A DNA stretch of 64,000 bases from Fibrobacter succinogenes (GTDB lineage Bacteria; Fibrobacterota; Fibrobacteria; Fibrobacterales; Fibrobacteraceae), in contig CACXMH010000013.1 in assembly GCA_902768715.1 (NCBI GenBank), forward strand, positions 410 to 64,409. Reading direction: 5' to 3'. The position numbers and the translations under genes are program-made. Position 1 is the stretch's first letter. The number at the start of each line of letters is the position of its first letter. Shown in pieces: positions 36,986 to 56,825 of the stretch. Below the pieces are notes generated by a model. The model saw nothing but the letters and a program-made list of their open reading frames with translations. It was not told the DNA's origin and did not search any database.

Positions 36986-38479
36986 ATGACGGAACTGTCG
37001 TCAGCGTTGATTTATTTGGGAAGCGCCTTGATGCTTCTCAACATTGTCCGCTACATTCTGCTGGAACGGGTTGTTCTCAGGTCAAACTACTGGGACAAGG
37101 GCCGCGGTCCTCTCCACATTCCTTTGGCGCTGTTGGTCCTGTTCCTTCTGGGTTACCTTGCAGTGGGGTACGTGGGAACTCACGACAACGTGGTCCCATC
37201 CATCCTCTTTGGCGGGAGCCTTTTTGTGTTCCTGATTCTCTCCCTGATGAAGATTGTCCTTAAAAAAGTGGAAGAGGGGGAGGAACGTATCGGGGCGGTC
37301 CACAAGGACCTGAATGCGGAAAAGAAGGAACACGAGGCCAAGTCCGCATTCCTTTCTAACATCGGTCACGATATCCGCACCCCCATGAACGCGATTATGG
37401 GCTGTGTCGCCCTTTGCAAAAGGGAAGACGCCACCTTGCCCGAAATCAGGGAGAATGCGGCCAAGATAGAGCGCTCCTGCCAGCATCTGCTGTCGCTGGT
37501 GAACGACGTGCTGGAAATGAGCCGCCTGGAAAGCGGAAAAATCGAGGCGGAAGAATCCGCCCTGGACTTAAGGGAAATGGTGTCCGGCTGGCAAGAAACC
37601 TTTGCTCCCCGGATGCAGGAGAAGAACATCGACTTCACGGTGGATTGCGCCAGCATAAAAGATTCCCAGGTCATTTGTTCCCGCCAGGGCTTCAACCGGG
37701 TCGTCATGAACCTCTTGAGTAACGCCTGCAAGTTTACGCCCGATGGTGGAAAGGTTTCCTTGAAACTTTCCGAAAAGCCGTCGGAAAGGGAAGGCTTCGG
37801 CCTGTATGAATTGCGGGTGAAGGACAACGGAATCGGCATGACCGAAAGCCTTGTGAGCCGCCTGTTCGACGCCTTTGAAATGGAACGTTCCTCTTCGTTG
37901 AGCGGTGTCCAGGGCGTGGGTCTTGGAATGGCCATCACCAAGCGTATCGTGGACCAGATGGACGGAAAAATCCAGGTGCAGAGCCAGTCCGGAAAGGGGA
38001 CGGAGTTCGTGGTGACACTCCCCATGCGCCTGCAGTCGGCCATGCAAGCCCAGTGGGGTTCCGATTTGCCGAACTGTCCGGTGAATTTTGCGGGCAAGAG
38101 AATCCTTCTGGTGGAGGACATGGTTGTCAATCGGGAGGTGACCGGATTGATTCTGAAAAACATGGGCTTCGAAGTGGAATTTGCGGCGAATGGGGAAGAG
38201 GCGGTCTACAAGCTGTCCAGTGCCCATCCCGGCTACTACGACATGGTCCTGATGGATATCCAGATGCCCGTCATGGATGGTTACGAGGCCACCCGCCGGA
38301 TCCGCCGTCTCGGCAATGTGGAGCAGGCCTATGTCCCCATCGTGGCCATGACGGCCAATGCCTTTAGCGCAGATATGGAAAAGGCCATGGAGGCGGGAAT
38401 GAACGCCTACGTGGCCAAGCCTATCGATGTAGCTGTTCTTGAAAAGACCCTGGCAGGAATTTTCGGGAAGAAAACTTAG
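36986..38479 (+). CDS. Hybrid sensor histidine kinase (2 TM, HisKA, HATPase, receiver), orphan
   Basis: H-box [13 protein letters not shown]; [24 protein letters not shown]; receiver [10 protein letters not shown]...[12 protein letters not shown]...VAKP. Confidence 0.9.
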
Positions 38480-39258
38480 TCTCGCAGGAATCCCGTTAGC
38501 GGGTCGGAGGCGGAAGCCCCGCGCGTGAGCACGCGCCCAAGGCCTGCCAGGTAGGCCTTGCGACCCGCCTCTATCGCAAGCTTGAAACTTTCCGCCATGA
38601 GCGTCAGGTCGCCTGCCGTCGCGAGGGCGGTATTCGCCATGATGGCCGCCGCCCCCATCTCCATGGCGGCACAGGCTTCGGAAGGTTTCCCGATTCCCGC
38701 GTCCACGATGATGGGCAAGTCGATTTCGTCAATCAGAATCTGGATGAATTCCCGAGTGGAAAGCCCCTTGTTGGACCCGATGGGGGCGGCAAGTGGCATC
38801 ACTGCGGCGGCTCCAGCGTTCACCAGGTCCCGTGCCACGTTCAGGTCCGGGTACATGTAGGGCATCACCACGAAACCTTCCTTTGCCAAGGTCTCCGTGG
38901 CCTTTACCGTTTCGTAGTTGTCGGGCAGCAAGTACTTGGTGTCCCGCATGATTTCGATCTTCACGAAGTCGCCACAGCCCAGTTCTCTGGAAAGTCGTGC
39001 GATACGCACCGCCTCGTCGGCATTCCGCGCACCCGAGGTGTTTGGGAGCAGCGTCACACCCTTGGGAATGTAGTCCAGAATGTTCTCGTGGTCCTTGGTG
39101 TTGGCACGGCGCACAGCAAGCGTTACGATCTGTGCTCCGGCGTCACGTACCGCCGCCTCGATGAGTTTCAGCGAGTACTTGCCGGAACCAAGAATAAAAC
39201 GGGAACTGAATTCGTGTCCGCCGATAACGAGAGAATCTTTAACCTGAGAGTCTGCCAT
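38476..39258 (-). CDS. thiG: Thiazole synthase
   Basis: [19 protein letters not shown] at the N-terminus, LLPNTSG, and [13 protein letters not shown]. The start is placed at MADSQ (39258), because the upstream part of the track ORF lies in repeats. Confidence 0.9.
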
Positions 39259-39323
39259 AAAGCCTTCTTGTTGTGGCGGAATATAGAAAAATCCGCCCGA
39301 AATATGGACGAGGTGAAAAGGAG

Positions 39324-39343
39324 ATGCCCGCCTTCGCGGGCAT
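39324..39343. repeat. ATGCCCGC cttc GCGGGCAT hairpin repeat
   Basis: Perfect 8-bp stem. A related copy is at 18490-18511 and a half-copy at 6468-6480. Confidence 0.75.
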
Positions 39344-39368
39344 GACAAATCGAAGAAAGGACGGTCGT

Positions 39369-39461
39369 CCGTGAGCAACAAAGCCCCTGGTATTAACCAG
39401 GGGCGGTTGCGAGAGTGAGCGCAGTCCGGAGAATTTGCTCCTGACTTTGGCGCGAACGGTC
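39369..39461 (-). repeat. Conserved ~95-nt two-hairpin element immediately 3' of ilvN (copy A)
   Basis: The minus strand reads TAAgc GACCGTTCGCGCCAAAGTCAGGAGCAAATTCTCCGGACTGCGCTCACTCTCGCAACC GCCCCTGG ttaata CCAGGGGC TTTGTTGCTCAC. It matches 55852-56041. Confidence 0.85.
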
Positions 39462-39463
39462 GC

Positions 39464-39964
39464 TTAAGTTTTGTCTTCGCCGCGGAGCATGATGACCTTG
39501 CCCGTGCGGATGTATTCCACGATTTCGAATTTCTGGAGCAGACTCTTCAGGTTGTCCACCTTGTCGCTGCTTCCGGTAATCTGGATAATCATGGACTTTT
39601 CGGTCATATCTACGGTATGGGCCTTGAAGTGGTCGCAGAGCTGCAGCACTTCGGTTCTCTGGTCCGGAGTGCAGCGCACCTTGATGAGGGCCAGTTCCTT
39701 TTCCACTGCGTTGGTATCGGTGTGGTCCTTGGCCTGCACCACGTCCACCAGCTTTTCCAGCTGCTTGATAATCTGCATCAGGATTTCGGGATTGCCGTGG
39801 GCGATGATATTCATGCGGCTGAAATTCGGGTCCAAGGTGGGGGAGACCACCAGGGAATCGATGTTGTAGCCACGACGGGAGAACACTAGCGCGATACGCA
39901 CCAGCACGCCGGGGCGGTTCGCAACCAACAAACTAATAGAATGTGCCTTATCAATCATCTTCAA
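39464..39964 (-). CDS. ilvN: Acetolactate synthase small (regulatory) subunit
   Basis: 166 aa with an ACT-domain start ([31 protein letters not shown]), immediately downstream of ilvB. Confidence 0.9.
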
Positions 39965-55266: not shown

Positions 55267-55851
55267 ATGGGTACTGTAAGCACCAACGAATTCCGCAAGA
55301 AACTTAAAATCATGGTTGATGATCAGCCGTACGAAATCATCGAAAACCAGTTCGTGAAGCCGGGTAAGGGCCAGGCCTTCAACCGTGTTCGTATCAAGAA
55401 CCTGGTGACCGGCCGCACTCTGGAACGCACCTGGAAGAGTGGCGATACGGTGGAAGAAGCCGATGTGACCTTCACCGAAATGACCTACCTCTACAATGAC
55501 GGTTCTACTTGGTATTTCTTGAACAACGAATCCCAGGAAACCGAAGAAATTTCCAAGGAAGCTCTGAACGGCTGCGAAGTCTGGCTCCTGGACGGTGCTA
55601 CCGTAGAAGTGACCTGGTGGAAGGACCCGAAGTCCGGCGCTACGCTTCCTATCGAAGTGATTCCGCCTACCTTCGTTGACCTGATGATCGTAGATGCACC
55701 TCCGGCAGTGCAGGGCAACACCAGCGGCAACGTGATGCGTGAAGCCATTCTCGAAACCGGTGCCAAGGTGATGATCCCGCTGTTCATCGAGAACAACACC
55801 AAGATCCGCGTGGACACCCGCGACGGTTCTTACCTCGAAAGAGCGAAATAA
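55267..55851 (+). CDS. efp: Translation elongation factor P
   Basis: KPGKGQAF loop with the modifiable Lys. Colinear with E. coli EF-P apart from one short insertion. Confidence 0.92.
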   Translation: MGTVSTNEFRKKLKIMVDDQPYEIIENQFVKPGKGQAFNRVRIKNLVTGRTLERTWKSGDTVEEADVTFTEMTYLYNDGSTWYFLNNESQETEEISKEALNGCEVWLLDGATVEVTWWKDPKSGATLPIEVIPPTFVDLMIVDAPPAVQGNTSGNVMREAILETGAKVMIPLFIENNTKIRVDTRDGSYLERAK

Positions 55852-55946
55852 GACCGTTCGTGCTAAAAGCCGGAGCAAATTCTCCGGCCGGCACTCACTC
55901 TCACAACCACGCTCGGTTAATACCGAGCGTTTGTTGTTCACAATAA
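55852..55946 (+). repeat. Conserved 95-nt two-hairpin element, copy B (directly after the efp TAA)
   Basis: GACCGTTCGTGCTAAAAG CCGGAG caaatt CTCCGG CCGGCACTCACTCTCACAACC ACGCTCGG ttaata CCGAGCGT TTGTTGTTCACAATAA. Confidence 0.9.
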
Positions 55947-56041
55947 GACCGTTCGTGCTAAAAGCCGGAGCAAATTCTCCGGACTGCACTCACTCTCGCA
56001 ACCGCCCCAGTTTAATAACTGGGGCTTTGTTGCTCACGTAG
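55947..56041 (+). repeat. Conserved 95-nt two-hairpin element, copy C (tandem to copy B)
   Basis: The same element, with the second stem changed to GCCCCAG tttaataa CTGGGGC. Confidence 0.9.
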
Positions 56042-56087: not shown

Positions 56088-56825
56088 TCAGTGTGATAAC
56101 CTAAAGGTTAAGCCGAAGGTGTGGCTTTTATGGGATATTCTGTCTGCGCTTTTTCTTACCTTGGTGTAACTGTAGTGCTCGTTTTTATCGCGGAGCCAAC
56201 TGATAGTATAATTTAAAGCGAAACCGTAATTCCAGAGTCTGTTCATCCTCCATTCTTTACCAATTTCGAATTTACAAAATAGGTTTATGAATCCAGTCAC
56301 CATCGATGAGTCCCTGTATACTTGGTTAAAGTCATATGCGGTTACTTTAAAGTAGTCGAGTTCAAAACCTGCATTGACACCAATGAAAGTTCCGTACATC
56401 AGGCCAGTTATGTCTTGAACTGGGTAGATTTCTAAGCCTCCGCCCGAAGATACCCTGAAAGTGCCGTCATCATCATCCTTGATAGTTACTTTATTGATCT
56501 CATTTCCATTCTCTTTGGTTATGTATTCTCCTTTGAATGAGCCTTCTCCCATACCTAAACCAAGTACCGCGTAAAGTGAAGCCATATTGGAAAAAAATCT
56601 GCCAATTCGGAATTCGACTAAGTGTAAAAAGCCAGAAAATTTTTCTGATTCGATTTCACTTACGTCATATGAGACTTTTCTGCGTTCTGTCGTATAGGCG
56701 AATCCTGGATTGGCTGAAAAATATATCCCCTTATGCTCTTGAATCGGAGGAGAGATGCTCCTTGTTTCGTATTGTGCGAATGCACAGGATGTAATCAATA
56801 GGAGTGGAACGATGAATAATTTCAT
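56088..56825 (-). CDS. Small outer-membrane beta-barrel hypothetical protein in a low-GC islet
   Basis: Signal peptide MKLFIVPLLLITSCAFAQ and an alternating beta-strand pattern. The gene and its flanks are visibly more AT-rich than their neighbours. Confidence 0.55.
   Translation of the reverse strand: MKLFIVPLLLITSCAFAQYETRSISPPIQEHKGIYFSANPGFAYTTERRKVSYDVSEIESEKFSGFLHLVEFRIGRFFSNMASLYAVLGLGMGEGSFKGEYITKENGNEINKVTIKDDDDGTFRVSSGGGLEIYPVQDITGLMYGTFIGVNAGFELDYFKVTAYDFNQVYRDSSMVTGFINLFCKFEIGKEWRMNRLWNYGFALNYTISWLRDKNEHYSYTKVRKSADRISHKSHTFGLTFRLSH

Follow-up and report, generated by a model that had tools for sequence, protein, structure and literature searches.

This study examined a 64,000-nucleotide (nt) stretch of Fibrobacter succinogenes DNA (contig CACXMH010000013.1; hereafter the window), in which the genes efp and ilvN are each followed, almost at the stop codon, by a small two-hairpin element. 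An earlier note on this DNA had described three copies of the element, namely a tandem pair after efp (copies B and C) and a third on the opposite strand after ilvN (copy A), and a read-out of the sequence together with a three-way alignment bore this out (Table 1). The conserved core, running from GACCG to GCTCAC, is approximately 90 nt long (90-91 nt in the window), and the 95 nt that the note gave as the element length is the tandem period, which includes the AATAA separating B from C. The tight stop-codon junction was also found as described, 0 nt after the efp TAA for copy B and 2 nt after the ilvN TAA for copy A, and so were the second-stem variants quoted for the three copies; the second stem of copy C comprises 8 bp (GCCCCAGT/ACTGGGGC). 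The three copies are members of a previously undescribed, genus-wide family of small structured repeats in Fibrobacter.

The alignment of copies A, B, and C had a mean column identity of 79% and contained the conserved blocks listed in the note. A 37-nt conserved core pattern occurred three times in the window and not once in 100 shuffles, and the minimum free energy (MFE) folds of the copies had z-scores of -5.0 to -5.9 relative to shuffled sequences. When the covariance model R1 was run over the whole window with filters off, the three copies scored 94.8-100.7 bits and the next match 10.4 bits.

To determine how far the family extends, we scanned one genome per bacterial or archaeal species with a degenerate pattern, GACCGTTCGNGC followed after 15-45 nt by GCNCTCACTC, which matched at least 117 stretches. 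Approximately 30 of these lay in high-G+C actinobacteria and other phyla and had no profile match; these matches outside Fibrobacter are the chance matches expected of a 20-base pattern. The remainder came from F. succinogenes, F. intestinalis ATCC 43854, many Fibrobacter metagenome-assembled genomes (MAGs), and one "Fibrobacterales" MAG. A profile search with nhmmer found the element in 94 of 128 sources (127 fetched loci, numbered with the prefix L, and the window), all of them Fibrobacter or Fibrobacterales records, and the sources without a match included the pattern-matching loci from other phyla. This search yielded at least 137 non-redundant matches, 99 of full length, and several MAGs contributed at least six or seven separate loci each. 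The covariance-model search and the Rfam comparison that the earlier note had proposed were both performed. The model R1 gave at least 124 matches across 100 loci, many copies thus being found across Fibrobacter and only three in the window; among the matches listed, a single weak one (25.9 bits) lay outside the genus. In Rfam 15 at gathering threshold, the window yielded two tRNAs only, and permissive scans (E<=10) returned the cyanobacterial small RNA (sRNA) Yfr1 (RF01116) at 27 bits, below its gathering score of 38, with nothing else credible and no ribozyme. No match to the element was obtained by blastn against plasmid and phage records, and a pattern scan of viral contigs gave only two chance matches in high-G+C phage coding sequence. 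Neither the sequence of the element nor a description of it was found in the searchable literature, which was queried with sequence strings and with Fibrobacter combined with repeat or sRNA.

The anatomy of the family was read from an alignment of 100 distinct short copies (A2, 96 columns), in which the core is 83-94 nt long with a median of 90 nt. A unit comprises, in order, an AT-rich leader, GACC, a helix P1 with a hypervariable tip, UCUCGC, a bulged helix P2, and GCUCAC. Near-invariant positions are the 5' GACCG (usually GACCGTTCGCGC), the central GCGCTCAC-TCTCGC, and the 3' GCTCAC, and the P2 loop reads TTAATA in 61 and TTGATA in 11 of the 100 copies. P1 is formed by the 5' GTTCGCGC and GCGCTCAC, with two pyrimidine-pyrimidine mismatches in most copies (copy B has the usual U/C-U/C mismatches), and closes the hypervariable tip, hp1, which sometimes has no hairpin at all. 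In certain sub-families, P1 is wholly exchanged for unrelated perfect duplexes (GCACAAGTC/GACTTGTGC, GAATCC/GGATTC, or GCAAAATTC/GAATTTTGC). P2 is divided by a bulged C and a UUU loop into a lower stem, which reads GCAAC/GTTGC, GCCAC/GTGGC, GCCAA/TTGGC, or GCCGT/ACGGC, and an upper stem of 8 bp, which exists as approximately ten discrete sequence alleles.

The unit can also be extended. A long form of approximately 144 nt, present in at least about fifteen loci, carries an extra 54-nt two-hairpin module that is always placed after CTCACTC and before TCGC and that did not occur anywhere outside the element in the loci examined. The longest form holds a further 80 nt or so between TCGC and P2. 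Separately, in one copy (L074 1274-1442, plus strand) the TTAATA loop of P2 is the exact site of a foreign insert of approximately 75 nt, which may be another small element that targets TA-rich loops.

The two hairpins and their compensatory stem changes, which the note had seen in three copies, hold across the whole family. Pairing is retained in 94% of upper-stem and 91% of lower-stem positions of P2, with many double changes. For the structure as a whole, 78% of the alignment cells are paired, compared with 65% in shuffles; double-change cells number 353 compared with 116; and the covariation score is 0.32, compared with 0.12 for shuffles and 0.05-0.10 for slid controls. RNAalifold independently recovered P1 and the upper part of P2. 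The note had taken such changes as the classic signature of selection on RNA structure, a reading that the strand test weakened. G-U pairs outnumber A-C mismatches in P1 (31:9) and, in individual folds, in hp1 (99:52), so that folding of the sense strand is favored there. In P2, however, G-U pairs are rarer than A-C mismatches (9 versus 29) and wobble intermediates are almost lacking, and the MFE of the whole element is slightly better for the antisense strand (-35.4 kcal/mol) than for the sense strand (-33.4 kcal/mol). The outcome of the strand test is thus mixed, and the pattern fits the evolution of a DNA hairpin or mobile element as well as it fits RNA selection. Arm-templated correction in quasi-palindromes can generate discrete stem alleles without intermediates. 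Because such alleles are the behavior of mobile DNA hairpins, the data prove a constraint on the hairpins but not an RNA function.

These observations bear directly on one alternative, in which the element is an RNA module selected by the host, either as sRNAs derived or processed from 3' untranslated regions (3'UTRs) or as a protein-binding 3'UTR element. UCUCGC, UUAAUA, and UCAC would then bind a common RNA or protein partner, and the spread to many copies would be secondary. The nucleotides outside the helices are invariant while the helix sequences vary freely, the optional domains are orderly, with covariation of their own and fixed junctions, and most copies lie in the sense orientation to the upstream gene; together with the G-U enrichment in P1 and hp1 and the weak architectural resemblance to the two-hairpin Yfr1, these findings argue for such a module. 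The sub-threshold Yfr1 score and the behavior of P2 and of the antisense strand argue against it, as do the distribution of copies among strains and inside genes described below. We consider this explanation unlikely. A dedicated sRNA role in particular is unsupported, the conserved unpaired UCUCGC and the UUAAUA loop being present but without assignable targets.

We then analyzed where units lie relative to genes in 72 non-redundant evaluable arrays. The results revealed that 49 of the 72 start between -6 and +15 nt from the stop codon of a same-strand open reading frame (ORF) of at least 80 codons, and that 51 have the end of a convergent gene within 150 nt of their 3' end. Between abutting convergent genes, the element is often the sole intergenic sequence, and some stop codons make use of its first bases (ttTAG/ACCG, cTGA/CC). 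A stop triplet occurs within 8 nt upstream of 69 of the 81 first copies (85%) and of 24 of the 34 inner copies, against a background of 22%; TAA is enriched 8.4-fold, and the triplets rank TAA, TGA, TAG in frequency. The inner copies with such a triplet have no ORF to terminate. Antisense copies inside genes carry it as well, in the leaders TATGAC (FrdB), GATGAC (PFOR site 2), and TATAGC (HrpA), the form (T/G)ATGAC being common to unrelated intragenic sites, and it is missing from the empty FrdB site. The junction consists of the stop triplet followed by 0-3 variable nucleotides, with A or C at position -1. From these sequence comparisons, we infer that a short AT-rich leader with a stop triplet belongs to the unit. 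As an observation in its own right, 60 of 100 copies also have TAA, TAG, or TGA at element positions 13-15 (the same columns of A2; 55864-55866 in copy B), a triplet that shares the frame of GAC CGT TCG CGC, so that an element directly following a stop codon provides a second in-frame stop five codons on.

Comparison of equivalent sites in different strains revealed that the units come and go. Ten places encoding exactly the EF-P of the window were compared. No copy was present at the efp site of L001, L002, L005, L006, or L008, some of which have other small hairpins there; in L001, nothing separates the efp TAA from the TTA of the convergent gene. A single copy, of a different sub-type, is present in L003; the two copies of the window recur in L004, L007, and L009; and L010 has two copies of which the first is a long form. 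The order of units also differs, being B-C in the window, X-B in L125, and long-C in L010. At the ilvN site, L130 encodes an identical IlvN and lacks the element, and L038, from a different species, carries it at the same TTAAGC junction as the window. The element is therefore not tied to efp or ilvN, since strains with identical EF-P or IlvN proteins lack copies, a variability that argues against an RNA module selected by the host. Of the 72 arrays, 53 contain one unit, 11 contain two, and 2 contain three. Arrays are always head-to-tail and often have flanking fragments: a GACCGTTCGCGC stub follows the last copy at approximately 28 of the 72 array 3' flanks (counted by eye, not by script), as it does 4 nt past copy A, and decayed 3' ends sometimes precede the first copy. 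Units are thus gained, lost, and swapped between close strains, and arrays decay into fragments.

In the strains lacking the element at these sites, unrelated hairpin cassettes were seen in its place (approximately 10586-10625 in L002, L005, and L008; 10586-10680 in L006; 2002-2100 in L130). Examples are TTTCCGGCTTGACCGGAAA, a AGGGAGGGC...GCCCTCCCT hairpin that also occurs in L044, and GCGAGTGCAAAGCACTCGC, and these cassettes may represent further repeat families.

Units can also land inside coding sequence. In L016 and L022, which come from two species, one of two tandem FrdB paralogs carries a 93-nt antisense insertion that is read in frame as 31 extra residues in the 4Fe-4S dicluster region; the ORF of 284 aa remains intact, the Fer2_3 and Fer4 dicluster domains span the insert, and the inserted peptide is identical in both species. 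The second paralog in each locus is an empty site. Its sequence CAGG/GCAA/GGTCGAG corresponds to CAGG/CT..element..AG/GGTCGAG in the filled gene, and the flank is not duplicated. An ORF for an HrpA-like DEAH helicase (L028 503-4354, minus strand, 1283 aa of the contig) contains another in-frame antisense copy at residues ~931-963, in a C-terminal extension, and AVS...GESER is common to the HrpA-like and FrdB insert peptides. In F. intestinalis, a duplicated C-terminal fragment of pyruvate:ferredoxin oxidoreductase (PFOR) harbors three copies in both orientations, for two of which L034 provides empty sites (net +94 and +95 nt); these sites are ambiguous as to target duplication. The PFOR fragment is a pseudogene because it is truncated and duplicated, its thiamine pyrophosphate (TPP) motif is deleted, and the inserts contain stops; an apparently intact PFOR C-terminus ends at approximately position 55 of L033. 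The antisense copies within ORFs and the two orientations within a pseudogene are further points against an RNA module. We rejected an intron-like or bypass element, because the PFOR fragment is a pseudogene and the FrdB and HrpA inserts are read through in frame.

We next considered whether the copies are ordinary Rho-independent terminators that are alike through shared ancestry or local duplication. They lie at gene 3' ends, a terminator scan flags P2 and its tail in all three window copies, and 53 of 100 copies have at least five T among the 8 nt that follow the upper stem. However, 28 of 100 have three T or fewer there, and copies also occur inside genes. The U-rich tail of the earlier note belongs to the covarying lower helix of P2, of which it forms the 3' strand: it pairs with the upstream CAAC, reads GUGG, ACGG, or CCGG in sub-families, and is U-rich in about half of the copies. 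Moreover, separate canonical terminators often lie downstream, within 110 nt of 19 of the 72 arrays, indicating that the element in those arrays is transcribed as part of the 3'UTR. Copy A is one of them: a terminator-like hairpin (39343-39324) and then a T-run lie between it and thiG, which places copy A inside the ilvN 3'UTR. The note had already held that a plain terminator would not suffice, and the approximately 55 conserved nucleotides upstream of P2, together with the covariation of P1, uphold that view. Ordinary terminators are therefore a very improbable explanation. Among the roles that the note had put forward, a mobile terminator cassette fits best, with termination itself presumed by analogy, and an sRNA has no support beyond its architecture. 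By the same analogy, an element lying between abutting convergent genes would probably act on both transcripts, either as a structure or as a leaky terminator.

We consider it probable, though well short of certain, that the units constitute an interspersed repeat family of Fibrobacter without terminal inverted repeats (TIRs), apparently mobile, co-transcribed with its host genes, and acting as a 3'-end structure or leaky terminator. The units would spread as DNA by a hairpin-dependent route that needs no TIRs and produces no obvious target duplication, and a host transposase of the HUH/Y1 type is the leading guess for the mobilizing enzyme. Copies would survive chiefly where they are harmless, that is, at the very end of a gene and usually between convergent genes, where the stop triplet of the leader would coincide with or replace the gene's own stop codon. 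Once inserted, a unit would be co-transcribed with the upstream gene, and its two stable helices may form a 3'UTR structure that acts as a barrier to 3'-5' exonucleases and as a leaky, partly bidirectional terminator or insulator. Hairpins near both ends, the lack of TIRs and of target-site duplication (TSD), oriented insertion, and same-orientation arrays are closest to single-strand (HUH/Y1) transposition. With its loose target and dissimilar end hairpins, the family is outside the definition of an IS200/IS605 derivative.

Several points weigh against this explanation. No transposase or other mobilizing gene adjoining the element or sharing its ends was found in approximately 0.9 Mb of fetched Fibrobacter DNA. 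The three comparisons of filled and empty sites give net gains of +93 to +95 nt, with flanks that are ambiguous as to the exact ends and the target rule, and the copy numbers per genome obtained from the species-representative scan are lower bounds only. The unpaired GACC, UCUCGC, UUAAUA loop, and UCAC are strongly conserved and the optional domains are orderly, features more reminiscent of a ligand- or protein-binding RNA than of a typical selfish repeat. The proposed role as a 3'UTR stabilizer or terminator is drawn by analogy with REP, ERIC, BOX, and SPRITE repeats.

A search of all fetched loci by tblastn with IS200 and IS608 TnpA sequences revealed a single IS200, in F. intestinalis (L033 313-735, plus strand), an IS200-type Y1 transposase gene approximately 64% identical to Salmonella IS200 TnpA. 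Its end hairpins are unlike the element, and it is not flanked by element copies. In the inverted pair of L043, each copy simply stands after a different gene. No candidate for a long "autonomous" form, in which an ORF would separate the 5' half from the 3' half, was seen, the long forms carrying the extra hairpin modules of 54 nt or ~80 nt.

The element-borne stop could instead mean that the unit is an entire 3'UTR, beginning with the stop codon and closing with the terminator hairpin, which is copied by way of an RNA or rolling-circle intermediate and inserted anew at other stop codons, or that the RNA processes itself. This would account for the stop triplet, for tandem arrays, and for the truncated next unit at array ends. 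Consistent with it, any of the three stop triplets travels with the element, even to antisense intragenic sites; the unit ends in a hairpin and a U-rich stretch; partial units follow the last copy; and neither TIRs nor TSDs were seen. However, no signature of a reverse transcriptase, a rolling-circle Rep, or a ribozyme was found, including among the Rfam ribozymes at E<=10, 3' fragments also occur upstream of arrays, so that simple deletion decay explains the partial units, and the spacer between the stop triplet and GACCG varies. We regard this explanation as having only a slim chance of being correct. A similarly slim chance attaches to the idea that a new mechanism of targeting or copying underlies the stop-codon association, and likewise to its fuller form, in which a portable gene end, with a stop codon of its own followed by a structured body and a terminator-like hairpin, would home to the stop codons of other genes, or be copied onto them, by a mechanism previously undescribed for bacterial repeats. 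Candidates for the latter would be an RNA or rolling-circle intermediate with copies of greater than unit length, or recognition linked to the terminating ribosome, and the invariant junction nucleotides would be a recognition or catalytic core.

Imperfect palindromes directly after stop codons, with variable sequence on a conserved structure and in arrays, also recall integron-type attC sites or other boundaries of site-specific recombination cassettes. We rejected this identification on the covariation of the core positions. An attC site has an R''/R' core (RYYYAAC/GTTRRRY), cassette ORFs, and an integrase, whereas the would-be AAC/GTT positions here covary freely (AU 61, CG 25, and others). 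In addition, the neighbors are housekeeping genes (efp, ilvBN, thiG) and not cassettes, the arrays have no ORFs, and the genes listed for the inspected loci include no integrase. A recombination site is thus close to refuted.

As an interspersed repeat, the family can be compared with several known systems. SPRITE, BOX, and RUP elements are modular repeats that lie near gene 3' ends, with enrichment between convergent genes (PMC3049150). The Fibrobacter element likewise is an approximately 100-nt interspersed repeat confined to one genus or species group and predicted to fold when transcribed; like SPRITE and BOX, it lies near the 3' ends of coding sequences, as the array counts above show, and is over-represented between convergent genes, and, like BOX, it has modular length variants. 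Neither has a known cognate transposase, and both have been suggested as co-opted terminators or as affecting co-transcribed genes. This is a comparison of how the elements work, in which sequence homology is not expected: the phylum differs and there is no sequence relationship. The Fibrobacter element further differs in being G+C-rich, with two helical domains, invariant junction nucleotides, and no A4/T4 or other TIRs, and in lying 0-8 nt from the stop codon with a leader stop triplet and in head-to-tail arrays.

The REP/BIME elements of Enterobacteria and Pseudomonas, which are mobilized by RAYT, are also structured extragenic 3'UTR repeats, often clustered and with compensatory hairpins. 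REP elements have known roles as exonuclease barriers, and, as Liang, Rudd and Deutscher reportedly found in 2015, a REP within approximately 15 nt of a stop codon modulates translation termination. We nevertheless rejected membership in the REP/BIME/REPIN group. The consensus has no GTAG-like head and is not a single palindrome of 20-40 nt, and the arrays are direct and on one strand, unlike the inverted pairs of REPIN and BIME. No RAYT gene flanked by copies was found in the fetched loci by tblastn with Y1 queries.

Rickettsia palindromic elements (RPE) insert in frame into genes (PMC10969869). The copies in FrdB (31 aa) and the HrpA-like helicase resemble them in being translated as an extra peptide within an ORF that stays open. 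Such copies are a minority, exceptional in a family that is mostly extragenic and stop-adjacent, and fold and sequence are unrelated to those of RPE.

The PATE elements derived from IS200/IS605 share with the family hairpins near both ends (here P1/hp1 at the 5' and P2 at the 3' end), no TIR, no evident TSD (judged here at FrdB), and oriented insertion beside a short motif, and same-orientation tandem insertion is conceivable if the end of an element resembles its target. The end hairpins of the Fibrobacter element are, in contrast, unlike each other, with freely varying stems and a loose target motif. We rejected a PATE identity, since there is no single tetra- or pentanucleotide target and the ends of the resident IS200 (L033) are unrelated. 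A miniature inverted-repeat transposable element of the TIR type (Correia, ERIC, RUP) was also rejected: the 5' end GACCGTTCG has its pairing partner in mid-element (P1) and not in the 3' GCTCAC, and comparison of the filled and empty FrdB paralogs revealed no duplication of the flank. Yfr1, the best Rfam match, shares a hairpin, a C/U-rich CUCAC-type linker, and a terminator-like hairpin; besides the sub-threshold score, it differs in that the linker is partly paired in P1 here, and in copy number, context, and taxon. In function and ecology, the family works like the pneumococcal SPRITE and BOX and the enterobacterial REP/BIME, and occasional copies resemble RPE, but it is a member of none of these groups. 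What sets it apart is a fold of two domains whose junction nucleotides are invariant, together with optional domains that keep fixed positions, a stop triplet borne by the element, and placement no more than a ribosome footprint from the stop codon.

Table 1. Coordinates of the repeat copies, their parts, and the genes that flank or contain them (window positions unless a locus is named).
Feature	Position	Strand	Basis or remark
Copy A, core	39371..39461	-	R1 96.9 bits; 2 nt (GC) past the ilvN TAA (39464-39466)
Incomplete 5' part of another unit (GACCGTCC), 4 nt past copy A	39359..39366	-	
Separate canonical terminator-like hairpin (ATGCCCGCGAAGGCGGGCAT) and T-run	39314..39343	-	Between copy A and thiG
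ilvN, acetolactate synthase small subunit, stop before copy A	39464..39964	-	Pfam ACT/ALS_ss_C on identical protein
efp, stop codon abutting copy B	55267..55851 (TAA 55849-55851)	+	Pfam EFP domains on identical protein
Copy B, core (GACCG...GTTCAC)	55852..55941	+	R1 100.7 bits, sequence, alignment
Copy B, helix P1	55856..55898	+	55856-55864 pairs with 55890-55898; MFE fold, family covariation
Copy B, hp1 (variable hairpin tip)	55869-55875/55882-55888	+	Inside P1
Copy B, helix P2	55903..55937	+	Lower stem 55903-55907/55933-55937, upper stem 55909-55916/55923-55930, loop TTAATA
Spacer/leader AATAA between B and C	55942..55946	+	Repeats the AATAA preceding B; family-wide stop-triplet leader
Copy C, core	55947..56037	+	R1 94.8 bits; followed by purine-rich tail GTAGAAA
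Tandem paralogs, fumarate reductase/succinate dehydrogenase Fe-S subunit (FrdB)	L016 2897-3751, 5622-6380	-	
The same, second species	L022 5257-6108, 2168-2926	+	
PFOR fragment	L033 5292-6430; also L034 390-2200		3-4 element copies in both orientations; L033: F. intestinalis ATCC 43854, NZ_FUWU01000007.1

Two further observations concern gene content around the window copies. An ORF of 245 aa without a Pfam match (56088-56825, minus strand) lies between copy C and a convergent gene of 324 aa. It was found in L004 and L007, which resemble the window (the L009 contig ends before it), and was absent from L001, L002, L003, L005, L006, and L008, all of which encode an identical EF-P; the intergenic region 3' of efp is a strain-level hotspot. 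Furthermore, the mechanically called thiG ORF (38476-39381, minus strand) runs upstream through copy A from a TTG codon, whereas the true start codon, which is also the one called in L128 and L129, is the ATG at 39258. Repeats of this family can inflate ORF calls.

Fibrobacter species are major fiber degraders of the rumen and hindgut, and hardly any of their non-coding genome has been explored. The repeat family provides a genus-specific marker and explains strain-level variation of intergenic regions and some odd gene calls, among them ORFs that run on into repeats, its intragenic copies explaining the 31-aa insert in a fumarate reductase subunit. A repeat within the ribosome footprint of a stop codon is also a tractable example of its kind. 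If stop-codon targeting and the element-borne stop prove to be a real mechanism, they could represent a new way for a small mobile DNA to choose harmless sites, and the element could serve in the engineering of Fibrobacter and related bacteria as a natural 3'-end module that is portable.

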